A program made the position numbers and the translations under genes. 64,000 bases of DNA from an uncultured Gemmatimonadaceae bacterium (GTDB taxonomy: Bacteria; Gemmatimonadota; Gemmatimonadetes; Gemmatimonadales; Gemmatimonadaceae). The notes under the pieces were generated by a model. It was given only the letters and a program-made list of their open reading frames with translations. It made no database searches and was not told the origin of the DNA. Positions 8,018-56,529 of this stretch are shown here, piece after piece. Each line of letters begins with the position of its first letter. Within the stretch, counting starts at the first letter, position 1. The stretch is from NCBI GenBank assembly GCA_963751275.1, contig CAVVTZ010000007.1:480001-544000 (forward strand). Direction: 5' to 3'.

Positions 8018-8152
8018 GCAACGACAGCAAACTGCTTTTGACAGGATTACAGGATTACGGGATAACTGCTGATGACCGCTTGAGGCGGCCGCGCCTCAAG
8101 CGGTCATCAGCAGTTATCCCGTAATCCTGTCAAAGCAGTTTGTTGTCGTTGC
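8018..8152. repeat. Foldback palindromic element, copy A
   Basis: Arms GCAACGACAGCAAACTGCTTTTGACAGGATT..GATAACTGCTGATGACCGCTTGAGGCG and its reverse complement; 4-nt loop; left arm has one extra ACAGGATT unit. Confidence 0.95.
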
Positions 8153-8169
8153 TCTAACTCGACCTCGCG

Positions 8170-10141
8170 TCAGCTCTCGGTCGCCTCATATTGATCCTTG
8201 AGCTTCGCCACCACCGCCGGATCGGCCAGCGTGGTCACGTCGCCGAGCGCGCGTCCTTCCGCGATGTCGCGCAGCAGGCGCCGCATGATCTTCCCCGAGC
8301 GCGTCTTGGGCAGGTCGGCGGAGAAGAGGATGTCATCCGGTCGCGCGAGGGCGCCGATCTTCGTCGCGACGTGCTCGCGCAGCTCGTCGCGCAGCGCCGG
8401 CGACGCGTGCTTCCCTTCGCGCAGCGTGACGAAGGCGGCGATCGCCTGGCCCTTCAACTCGTGCGCCTTGCCCACCACCGCCGCCTCGGCGACGGACGGG
8501 TGCGACACGAGCGCGCTCTCGACCTCCATCGTCCCGATGCGGTGCCCGGCGACGTTGAGCACGTCGTCCACGCGGCCGAGGATCCAGAAGTAGCCGTCGT
8601 CGTCGCGCTTCGCGCCGTCGCCGGGGAAGTAGAGATCGGGCCGGTCCTTCCACTTGGTGAAGTACGTCTGCACGTAGCGCTCGTGATCGCCCCAGATCGT
8701 GCGCAGCATCGACGGCCACGGGCGCGTGATCGCGAGCAGACCGCCGCCGACGTCGATGCGCTTCGCGTGCGTCGTCGAGGAGCTCGGCGAAGATCCCCGG
8801 GAACGGCCACGTCGCGCTGCCCGGCTTGGTGGCGGTGAGACCGGGGAGCGGCGTGATCATGATGCTGCCCGTCTCGGTCTGCCACCACGTGTCGACGATC
8901 GGGCAGCGGCCCTTGCCGACGTTCTCGTGGTACCACATCCACGCCTCGGGGTTGATCGGTTCGCCGACGGAACCGAGCAGCCGCAGGCGTGAGAGGTCGT
9001 GCTTGCCGGACGTGCTCCTTCGCCCCACTTCATGAACGCGCGGATCGCGGTCGGCGCCGTGTAGAAGACCGTGACGCCGAACTTCTCGATGATCTCCCAG
9101 AAGCGGTCCTTCTCGGGCCAGTCGGGCGCGCCCTCGTACATCACGCACGGTCGCGCCGTTGGCGAGCGGGCCCGTAGACGACGTAGGTGTGGCCGGTGAC
9201 CCAGCCGACGTCGGCGGTGCACCAGAAGACGTCGTCGTCCTTGAGGTCGAACACGTACTTCGTGGTCGCGTGCGCGCCGGTCAGGTAGCCGCCGGTGGTG
9301 TGCACGATCCCCTTCGGCTTGCCGGTGGTGCCGCTCGTGTAGAGGATGTAGAGCACGTCCTCCGCGTCCATCGCTTCCGGCTTCGCGGTAGGGCGCCGCG
9401 TGCATCATGAGGCGGTGCCACCAGTGGTCGCGCCCTTCGCGCATCTCGGCGAAGCTCTCGGTGCTGTCGCCGGTGCGCTTCACGACCACGACGTGCTTGA
9501 TCGACGGCGTCTCTTCGAGCGCCTTGTCGGCGTTGCGCTTGAGCGGCACGCATCTGGCCGCGCCGGTAGCCGCCGTCGGCGGTGACGAGCACCTTCGCCT
9601 GCGCATCGTTGATGCGGTCGCGCAGCGCTGTCGGCGGAGAATCCGCCGAAGACGACCGAGTGCGGCGCGCCGATGCGCGCGCACGCGAGCATCGCGATCG
9701 CGACCTCGGGAATCAGCGGCAGGTAGATCGCGACGCGGTCACCGCGCTTCACGCCGAGCGACGTCGAGCACGTTCGCGAACTTGTTGACCTCGCGGTAGA
9801 GCTCCCAGTAGGTGAGCGTCGCGCGTGTCGCCCGGCTCGCCCTCCCAGATCAGCGCCGCCTTGTTGCGCCGCGCGCCGCGGACGTGGCGGTCGAGGCAGT
9901 TGACGCTCGCGTTGAGCTTGCCGCCGACGAACCACTTCGCGTACGGCGGATCCCATTCGAGCACGGTCTTCCACGGCTTCGACCACTCGAGTTCGCGCGC
10001 CATCTCGGCCCAGAACGCCTCGTAGTCCTTGGCGCCCCGGTCGTGCATGGCGGATGAATTGACGTGCGCATCCTTCGCGAACGCCGCGGGAGGCGGGAAT
10101 TTCCGGTGCTCGTGGAGCAAGACATCAATGTCGTCGGACAT
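8170..10141 (-). CDS. acs: Acetyl-CoA synthetase (several frameshifts, probably sequencing errors)
   Basis: Fragments in different frames: [52 protein letters not shown]. Confidence 0.93.
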
Positions 10142-10188
10142 GTTTGGGATTCTATTGGCCTTGTCAGTGCATCGCTAGTTCGCGGTAG

Positions 10189-10315
10189 CAAACTGCTTTT
10201 GACAGGATGACAGGATTGCACAGGATAACTGCTGATGAACGACTTGAGGCGGCCGCCTCAAGTCGTTCATCAGCAGTTATCCTGTGCAATCCTGTCATCC
10301 TGTCAAAGCAGTTTG
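10189..10315. repeat. Foldback palindromic element, copy B
   Basis: CAAACTGCTTTTGACAGGATGACAGGATTGCACAGGATAACTGCTGATGAACGACTTGAGGCGG|CCGCCTCAAG...; no loop, one bulged T. Confidence 0.95.
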
Positions 10316-10331
10316 TTCTCGTTCTCTCCCT

Positions 10332-11447
10332 TCAGCGAGTCTTGAATCGCCGATAGTAGGCCCACTGGAGCCATCGTCGCGCGGAGACATACATCGGCCG
10401 CTCGTCGATGCGCGTGTCGCGCAGGATCGCGCTCTTCTTCGCGCCGAGCGACATCCCATACCAGAAATCGGTTCGCAGACGGTGCGCTGGTCCGGAGCCC
10501 GGCGCGTATCGGCCGCTGATGCGGCGCGCGAGCGTGGCGCCCTGCCAGATCGCCTCGATCGCGCGGCGCATCGTGGGCCACGACTGGCCGTCGTCCACGA
10601 TCTGCGCGGCATCGCCGATCGCGTGCAGGCCTTCGCAGCCGTTCACCTCGAGGCGCGGTGTCACGACAATGCGCCCGTCCTCGCCCAGTGGCGCGCCGAA
10701 CGCGGCGAGCACCGGGTTCGCGCGCACGCCGCCGGCCCAGAGCAGCACATCCCCGGGGAAGGCGGCGCCGTCGGCGAGCAACGCGCGGTCGCCCGCGAAG
10801 CCGGCCACGCGACGGCCGAACACCATCTCCACCCCCACGGCCGCCAGCGCGCGGCTCGCACGACGCGCGACGCTCGGCGCGAATCCCGGCAGGAGCTGCG
10901 GCTCGACGCCGATGAGCGTCACCGCAATGCGCGTCCCCTCCACGCGCGCGCTCGCCAATTCCGCGCTCCACTCCACGGCCGTGAGTCCGCCACCGGCCAC
11001 GACGACGCGCATCATGCGCGCTCCCGTCGCGCGCAGCACGTGCAGGCGCTGGTTCAACGTCACCGCATCGGGGACCCATTTCGCCGGGATCACGCCGGCC
11101 TTCCCCTCGAGATCCGGCGGCACCGCCGGCACCGAACCCACGGCCACGATGCACCGGTCGTACGCGAGCACGCGCCCATTCTCCAGTGTGACGGTCTTCG
11201 CGGCGGGGTCCACCGATTTCGCGCCGCTCATCACCCACTCGGCGCCGAGCGCGGTGACGAAGGCCGGCGTCTCGAAGGTCAGCTCGTCGGACGAGCGCGT
11301 GCCGCTCGCGACCTCGTGCGCGAGCGGCACGTACGAATGGCGCGCACGCGGGTCCACCACCGTCACTTCGCCCGGCGCGAACATGCCGGTGCGCCGCGAA
11401 TACCGCAGCAGGAACTCCAGTCCGGCGAAGGAGCAGCCGAGGAGCAC
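10332..11447 (-). CDS. NAD(P)/FAD-dependent oxidoreductase, type II NADH dehydrogenase-like
   Basis: RIVLLGCSFAG, YDRCIVAVGS, VVAGGGLTAVE, LLWAGGV, AIGDAA; true start probably slightly upstream (about 11483). Confidence 0.8.
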   Translation of the reverse strand: MLLGCSFAGLEFLLRYSRRTGMFAPGEVTVVDPRARHSYVPLAHEVASGTRSSDELTFETPAFVTALGAEWVMSGAKSVDPAAKTVTLENGRVLAYDRCIVAVGSVPAVPPDLEGKAGVIPAKWVPDAVTLNQRLHVLRATGARMMRVVVAGGGLTAVEWSAELASARVEGTRIAVTLIGVEPQLLPGFAPSVARRASRALAAVGVEMVFGRRVAGFAGDRALLADGAAFPGDVLLWAGGVRANPVLAAFGAPLGEDGRIVVTPRLEVNGCEGLHAIGDAAQIVDDGQSWPTMRRAIEAIWQGATLARRISGRYAPGSGPAHRLRTDFWYGMSLGAKKSAILRDTRIDERPMYVSARRWLQWAYYRRFKTR

Positions 11448-55613: not shown

Positions 55614-55635
55614 CGCCGGATCGGATGTGAACGGA

Positions 55636-55670
55636 GCGCGGCGGACTGGCCACACGGCGGTCCGCCGCGC
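55636..55670. terminator. GC-rich hairpin, possible terminator
   Basis: GCGCGGCGGAC..GTCCGCCGCGC after the stop codon, followed by ACGTTT. Confidence 0.5.
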
Positions 55671-55774
55671 ACGTTTCATCGGCAACGGCGGGAACTAATC
55701 CCCCCGTCGGGCCGTATCTTCTTCAGCCTGCCGCACGACGCGGCCGCGCTCACCCCGTACAAGGATCGCCGATC

Positions 55775-56395
55775 GTGAATCTCACCACCCGCCGCACCCT
55801 CACCGCGCTGGCCACCGTGGCCACGTTCGCCGCGCTCGGCGCCTGCGCGAACTCGGTGGATGTGAACACCGACTGGAATCCGAACATCGATTTCAGCCAG
55901 TACAAGACGTTCGCTTTCCTCCCCGACACGGTGGACAAGGCGCTGCCGCCATTCGCGAATGACCGGCTGAAGGCGGCGATCGATTCGGCGCTCAAGAAGC
56001 GCGGCCTCGTCGAGGTGACGTCGGATCCGCAGCTCTACGCCACCTTCCGTGCGAACACGCACAAGGAGACGCAGTACACCACCGTGAGCACGGGCTACGG
56101 CTACGGCGCGGGCTGGGGCGGCTGGGGCGGCTACGGCTACGGCGGCTACTACGGCGGCATGGGCTACGGCGGCGTCGGCGTCTCGACCACCACGCAGCAG
56201 CAGATCCCCATGGGCAACCTCATCGTCGTGCTCGTGGACACGAAGCTCAACCAGATGGTGTGGCGCGGCAACGCGAAGGCCGAGATCGCGGAGGACATGC
56301 AGGGACGCGCGCAGCAGCTCGAGAGCGCGATGAACCAGATGTTCTACGCCTTCCCGCCCAAGAAGGGGCAGCAGCCGGGGGCCTCGGAGTATTAG
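55775..56395 (+). CDS. DUF4136 family lipoprotein (tandem paralog)
   Basis: LGAC lipobox, DFSQYKTF, Gly/Tyr-rich linker, MVWRG, AFPP. Confidence 0.85.
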   Translation: MNLTTRRTLTALATVATFAALGACANSVDVNTDWNPNIDFSQYKTFAFLPDTVDKALPPFANDRLKAAIDSALKKRGLVEVTSDPQLYATFRANTHKETQYTTVSTGYGYGAGWGGWGGYGYGGYYGGMGYGGVGVSTTTQQQIPMGNLIVVLVDTKLNQMVWRGNAKAEIAEDMQGRAQQLESAMNQMFYAFPPKKGQQPGASEY

Positions 56396-56405
56396 CGTCG
56401 ACCTG

Positions 56406-56529
56406 AACTGCTTTTGACAGGATGAGCGGGATGAGAACAGCATAAGAGCGGATGAACGGCCTGATGATCATCAGGCCGTTCATCCGCTCTTATGCTGTTC
56501 TCATCCCGTTCATCCTGTCAAAAGCAGTT
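56406..56529. repeat. Foldback palindromic element, copy F
   Basis: 62-bp arms, one G/T mismatch, no loop (centre CTGATGATCATCAG). Confidence 0.95.

Follow-up and report, generated by a model that had tools for sequence, protein, structure and literature searches.

The stretch of DNA analyzed here, referred to as the window, comprises 64,000 nt of an uncultured Gemmatimonadaceae bacterium (G000:C7:480001-544000, where G000 is the source genome, an assembly of 3.1 Mb with 68% GC and 83% completeness) and contains six short intergenic elements, A to F. These elements belong to a real repeat family, which is the gene-less, non-autonomous partner of a cassette composed of an arm, a gene for a GxxExxY protein and an inverted arm. 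All six are present where an initial annotation, made from the sequence alone, had placed them, and their GC content is 0.49-0.55 compared to 0.688 for the whole window. They share an end motif, and the sequence TTTGACAGGAT occurs six times on the plus strand and five times on the minus strand of the window, every time within one of the six elements. Elements A, B, D, E, and F fold back on themselves through half-arms of 72/63, 64/63, 71/71, 78/77, and 62/62 nt, respectively, and loops of 0-4 nt, while C has imperfect arms (34 of 42 positions matched) around a 68-nt centre. RNA folding gave z-scores of -21.6 to -28.6 for A, B, D, and F and -6.3 for C; E, with 155 nt, was outside the folded set. 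Differences between copies are mirrored as first described, since the two arms agree at 24 of the 35 variable columns in every one of the five foldbacks and pairwise comparison of these gave 153 mirrored versus 55 unmirrored differences. Eight of the 11 discordant columns stem from element A, the right arm of which is one 8-nt unit short. The one base that separates ACTGC from TTTGAC is unequal between the arms in eight of 18 near-perfect stems, with A, B, and E among the inward copies concerned, which may be a mark of element polarity or, in some stems, a homopolymer error. No tRNA match and no Rfam match at gathering score was obtained in the window, and the elements located at 48-58 kb in the window do not score as intrinsic terminators.

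The distribution of the family over the genome was analyzed with an arm profile, which produced 195 matches in G000 and none in the reversed genome. It resolved 164 arms at 79 loci: 37 are inward foldbacks, 33 are outward doublets, whose end motifs are turned toward each other over a short spacer, and the rest are four alternating arrays and five single arms. The foldbacks on which the initial annotation was built are thus real, but the outward-facing doublets and arrays belong to the same family and had been overlooked; likewise, its density of about one element per 10 kb holds within the window but not genome-wide, where 25 loci per Mb predict 1.6 per 64 kb (P = 0.006). Each arm is built from the AACTGC end motif followed by about three phased 8-9-nt words of the GACAGGAT type and has no hairpin of its own. 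Over their first 30 nt inward arms show an identity of 0.95 to their own partner versus 0.79 to other copies, and for outward arms these values are 0.86 and 0.78. According to our own rough gene calls the loci are intergenic with few exceptions. Inward copies are located at a median of 14.5 nt past a stop codon, with 29 of 32 no more than 60 nt away from it. Where the neighbouring genes are co-directional, the copy is nearer to the stop than to the start in 29 of 37 contexts, and the loci are enriched between convergent genes (21 of 68 loci versus 173 of the 1257 gaps that measure at least 100 nt). Sequence outside of the end motif is mirrored at 13 of 79 flank pairs compared to a permuted mean of 1.8. 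Three inner-sequence subfamilies, S1, S2, and S3, are present at seven, five, and four loci of G000 and at none of the fetched loci of its congeners, and the commonest first spacer is genome-specific (GA in 50 of 74 cases in G000, TA in 44 of 69 in the congener G005), differing even at shared sites; the subfamilies and the genome-specific arm variants both suggest that copies passed from locus to locus once the species had separated. The family is part of a wider set of 287 long-palindrome loci with at least 11 word families in G000 (two in the control), and inverted arms from other word families surround all six genes for four-helix-bundle proteins (TIGR02436) of this genome.

The candidate partner named in the initial annotation, a GxxExxY gene, proved to be correct. 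The very same arms enclose two such genes on the same contig, approximately 400 kb beyond the window (Table 1), and among widely spaced inward arm pairs these two are the only genes enclosed. Their products match only TIGR04256 and PF13366, with 133-135 bits versus a cut-off of 35. A third GxxExxY gene completes the set in G000 and has a single upstream arm from another word family. For comparison 80 homologue loci were gathered by means of peptide patterns from the protein core, and not from the arm-encoded N-terminus; two short-flank loci, one duplicate locus, and one locus of the unpublished genome G012 were dropped before the clade counts. With at least two arm words in inward sense required on each side, 44 of 78 close homologues from many phyla carry the arm words on both sides versus none of 28 other GxxExxY loci of G000 and its relatives (Fisher P = 1e-8, in a sample where kin are not independent), and 11 of these 28 are flanked by inverted arms of different words. 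The closest named homologue loci include Gemmatimonadaceae. In a quick tree all 46 arm-flanked rows fell into one branch of 78 rows (SH-aLRT 97) and none into the 32 rows outside; this branch covers more than ten phyla and leaves many of its inner forks unresolved. Judged from these flanks and the tree, the arm word tracks one branch of the GxxExxY protein family across phyla.

The protein is of approximately 130 amino acids and has a D-ExK triad followed by a QxxxY helix, a motif of RecB-family nucleases (PMC2475608). Residues D70, E31, Q94, and Y98 are invariant and E80 and K82 at least 90% conserved in 99 aligned rows. The predicted structure, with a mean confidence (pLDDT) of 91, matches PD-(D/E)xK folds, Cas4 and lambda exonuclease among them, but no single clear relative stands out. 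The best structural match, with a Z of 8.4, is an uncharacterised protein; no solved relative was found by sequence, and a search of the Atlas gave GxxExxY clusters only. A role as a cruciform resolvase of the Hjc type has no special structural support, with the Holliday-junction resolvase Hjc at Z 5.6, below several other PD-(D/E)xK proteins, and all matches middling. In published work PDDEXK_3 is tabulated with the function 'Unknown' and with many transfers (PMC3424549), and in a full-text search GxxExxY turned up as a gene beside a reverse transcriptase and in a paper on an algal virus genome. No description of a link between a repeat and GxxExxY was found in the literature searched, which covered few subscription journals.

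Table 1. Elements of the repeat family in the window and the GxxExxY cassettes on the same contig. Positions of A to F are those of the window.
Feature	Position	Context
Element A, inward foldback, S1	8018..8152	flanked by converging genes for VKOR (stop 8010-8012) and acetyl-CoA synthetase
Element B, inward foldback, S1	10189..10315	16 nt past stop of minus-strand oxidoreductase gene
Element C, inward pair, imperfect arms	32094..32239	directly past host terminator-like hairpin
Element D, inward foldback, S3, no loop	49936..50077	between convergent genes, abutting DUF748 gene stop
Element E, inward foldback, S1, mirrored outer extension	53103..53257	in the gap separating the divergently oriented DUF748 and queC genes
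Element F, inward foldback, S3	56406..56529	10 nt past DUF4136 gene stop, ahead of host hairpin
GxxExxY cassette	G000:C7:943206-943681	intact gene, start codon inside 5' arm
GxxExxY cassette	G000:C7:952022-952537	intact gene, start codon inside 5' arm

The distribution between genomes was addressed by searching relatives for the end motif, which in its strict form was present in four of 60 relatives, three of them congeners, and in a looser form in seven of 250 other genomes sampled in the phylum (both tallies include G012, on which no claim rests). In viral contigs the end motif was matched 46 times, always singly and never together with a word array, and in metagenomes none of the 27 matches to the S1 inner motif followed an arm word. 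At orthologous sites of relatives the elements are not fixed. At site A the congeners G002 and G005 carry other copies of the same family, G004 is empty, and G001 carries a palindrome of an unrelated family, while site B holds different copies of the same family in G002, G004, and G005 and none in G001. For G002, G004, and G005 alike, site C is an empty gap of 40-57 nt, site D holds palindromes of other word families, site E holds an outward doublet of the same family, and the gap at site F is empty; G003 has a palindrome of another family at site E. A syntenic gap was available in the fetched G005 DNA for 40 of the 79 sites of G000, and of these gaps 23 contain the family, five another palindrome, and 12 are empty (one of the latter, C1:46091, was not reproduced). 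Of the two-arm sites, 20 are shared; six of them have the flipped orientation, and at two of these six the gene content differs as well. Comparison of G002 with G005 covered 13 unmatched loci, four of which are clean swaps of word family at the same junction with flanks 90-97% identical; the others are one partial deletion, four loci with the family in both genomes, three without a syntenic mate, and one much longer gap. One of the swap sites carries this family in G000 and G002, another family in G004 and G005, and abutting stop codons in G003, and a second is also split two versus two, which fits either direction of the swap. Another palindrome is present in G005 at six of 13 junctions where only G000 has the family versus four of 212 without the family in G000 (P = 2e-6), which shows shared target preference or overwriting, two processes not separable here because the windows were chosen around family sites.

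Some individual loci show further rearrangements. At G000:C7:898237-899184 a gene and its outward doublet are tandemly duplicated, giving two diverged paralogues where congeners have one gene and one doublet. At G000:C11:203933-205421 an extra gene of 375 amino acids lies between two inward copies, while G002 (with one copy) and G004 join the flanks over a short gap; here the elements may have served as homology for gene gain or loss. At G000:C7:724478 and one other locus (L124), and at few sites in all, the last 20-30 nt of the upstream gene including its stop codon are repeated beyond the element. One locus of G005 (L078) has several small genes separated by outward doublets around a GxxExxY cassette, reminiscent of a gene-cassette array, and one of G181 (L320) consists of tandem 300-400-bp units each with an outward ACAGGAT doublet and palindromes of other families.

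Both the association of the protein with the arms and the turnover of the elements are observed. The explanation that we favour, with a probability of roughly 0.55, is that these are REPIN-like elements which the GxxExxY nuclease cognate to them writes or overwrites in trans and whose arms are made equal by fold-back copying; the enzymology we infer as follows. The GxxExxY protein, as a minimal PD-(D/E)xK nuclease with a QxxxY helix of the RecB/Cas4 type, would bind its own word array and cut the extruded hairpin or a single strand, upon which host repair, through template switching or fold-back synthesis, would use one arm as the model for its partner. A fresh copy would accordingly be a near-perfect palindrome with its own centre, and new copies would land in or overwrite gene junctions which bear hairpins. 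Inward and outward forms could represent two permutations released from alternating arrays or from a closed dumbbell intermediate.

A number of observations weigh against this explanation. PD-(D/E)xK enzymes hydrolyse and are not known to carry out strand transfer on their own, and the literature searched gave no activity for any GxxExxY protein. The enclosed gene need not be the mobiliser, because the non-enzymatic four-helix-bundle genes share the same layout in six of six cases. In a comparison of clade gene and repeat over 13 chosen genomes, a clade gene is lacking from what is assembled of G181 (94% complete, with 25 matches to the arm) and of G004 (76% complete), that of G002 is frameshifted, and that of G036 is without a clear 5' arm. 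The lack of any match to a Y1 transposase (PF01797) or a reverse transcriptase (RVT_1) in G000 speaks for the favoured explanation, but as this genome is 83% complete a missing transposase is possible. Direct repeats are present in the flanks of three of 79 pairs (permuted mean 0.85, maximum 4) and are thus not enriched, in a test that required approximately 11 matching bases and to which, with empty-site genomes only ~82-85% identical, short target duplications are invisible. Many sites persist across congeners, the 23 of 40 which still hold the family in G005 being an example. Lastly, orthologous inward copies of G002 and G005 differ by 42 one-arm changes versus six mirrored ones. The arm-to-arm copying proposed in the initial annotation is supported by the likeness of each arm to its own partner and by the mirrored changes, but between close genomes one-arm changes dominate, which makes arm copying look episodic or tied to formation of the element. 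Under a rough model 0.45-1.8 mirrored changes would be expected in place of six (one mis-paired orthologue was removed from this count), and outward copies of the same two genomes showed no clear excess. Near-perfect stems make up 18 of 37 inward copies in G000 versus seven of 52 in its congeners. We read this as symmetry which arises when a copy is written and decays later, with occasional correction by template switching, a process published for inverted repeats (PMC5941160).

In an alternative explanation the junctions are hairpin slots kept by the host. Such a junction would need a long RNA stem as a terminator, read-through block between convergent genes, RNase III site, or mRNA stabiliser, any palindrome family could fill it, arms would be paired by selection together with ordinary template switching, for which there is the precedent just cited, and the GxxExxY cassette would be only a historical source of arms. 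This agrees with inward copies lying close past stop codons and between convergent genes, with slots that remain while families change, and with an excess of G-U over A-C on the transcribed strand (40 versus 24). This last bias is however not significant (P = 0.06, suggestive only), G005 has nothing in 12 of the 40 syntenic gaps, three congeners lack an element at sites C and F, the repeat is patchy over the phylum, and identical inner subfamilies at four to seven unlinked loci need copying between loci. We regard host-kept slots as an unlikely explanation on balance, albeit the best of the alternatives. Selection on structure, likewise an option of the initial annotation, may still play a part.

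Nearly on a par with it, and likewise improbable, is that another enzyme is the mover, be it a transposase of the HUH/RAYT or DDE kind that has been lost or is absent from the assembly, or a host recombination pathway common to all the families, with GxxExxY and four-helix-bundle proteins as arm-binding adaptors or cargo. The same layout and the same junctions in at least 11 word families at 287 loci suggest one shared route, four-helix-bundle passengers are not nucleases, and both the incomplete assembly and the lack of a clade gene in the repeat-rich G181 and G004 fit with this. On the other hand, the search for Y1_Tnp and RVT_1 was negative in G000 (DDE families were not searched), widely spaced inward arm pairs enclose GxxExxY genes and nothing else, the catalytic residues are conserved, and the link between word and clade across phyla isn't predicted for passive cargo. 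An assembly artefact, be it foldback chimeras or polishing that equalised the arms, is very improbable, for even though the elements are known here from assemblies alone (contigs of four runs came from relatives, none usefully bridging), the acs gene is split by indel-like breaks, and near-perfect stems are commoner in G000 than in congeners, both flanks are collinear with congeners, family palindromes occupy the same sites in independent assemblies, imperfect and outward copies exist, and each stem has private sequence.

Comparison with known systems gives both likenesses and differences. The family resembles REPIN/BIME-RAYT systems and TIRtrons in its intergenic inverted doublets of ~100-150 bp downstream of genes and in its arrays of alternating orientation (PMC3116915, PMC6006769, PMC3733652), and in the presence of several families per genome, each with its own enclosed or adjacent gene (as above, and PMC3686654). 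REPINs at conserved extragenic spaces have been described as overwritten by another REPIN type (10.1101/2024.10.14.618302), and turnover and overwriting at orthologous spaces were likewise observed here. A REP, however, is defined as a unit of 20-40 bp that contains a palindrome and has a foot of GTAG or CGTC (PMC3733652), whereas the arms of the present family are phased word arrays lacking an own hairpin and such a foot, and a check against described families gave no match to GTAG/CGTC REPs or to any Rfam family. The partner is a PD-(D/E)xK protein and not an HUH Y1 transposase, and unlike in REPINs the swaps occur between unrelated word families, some of which are tied to the four-helix-bundle class. 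With neither an HUH transposase nor a REP foot, the family is not a member of REPIN-RAYT. It shares with MITEs (miniature transposable elements with inverted repeats) and transposons with terminal inverted repeats the combination of a short gene-less form and a longer form in which the same inverted ends surround one gene, but differs from MITEs in that no general target-site duplication was demonstrated, no DDE transposase lies inside the arms, the outward form is as common as the inward one, and each arm is likest to its own partner. Parallel in layout are the cassettes of four-helix-bundle proteins (TIGR02436; 23S rRNA intervening-sequence/Avd-like), with a small open reading frame between inverted word arrays and gene-less palindromes, which have another protein and other words than the ACAGGAT family and thus represent sister families sharing junctions. 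The GxxExxY protein itself is similar to nucleases of the RecB, Cas4, and lambda-exonuclease type in fold, in the D-ExK triad and in the subsequent QxxxY helix, but has only about 130 amino acids.

A broader proposal, which we make tentatively and hold to be less probable than the explanation favoured for the present family, is that GxxExxY nucleases drive a widespread and undescribed class of miniature elements needing no HUH or DDE transposase, in which clade-specific reading of words, cutting of hairpins, and fold-back writing would let a dozen families, linked to GxxExxY or four-helix-bundle genes, compete for and overwrite shared slots at gene ends, with new copies aimed at junctions where a palindrome of any family is already present. 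Through the association a defined DNA substrate is assigned to a protein family which is very large and of unknown function, and thanks to the word-to-clade code binding and cleavage can be tested directly. A further suggestion is that a second enzymology, unrelated to the first, supports the way of life known from REPIN-RAYT. With 287 loci in 3.1 Mb, palindrome families shape gene ends in this soil lineage, and the nuclease could be of use if a change of the word array allows arm recognition to be reprogrammed.

Two other features of the window were recorded. The acetyl-CoA synthetase gene (8170-10141) is broken into several open reading frames, probably by assembly indels. A seventh palindrome, at 2559-2664 between two minus-strand genes, belongs to a heptamer family (GACTGAC), and the same word also flanks a four-helix-bundle gene at G000:C9:147359.

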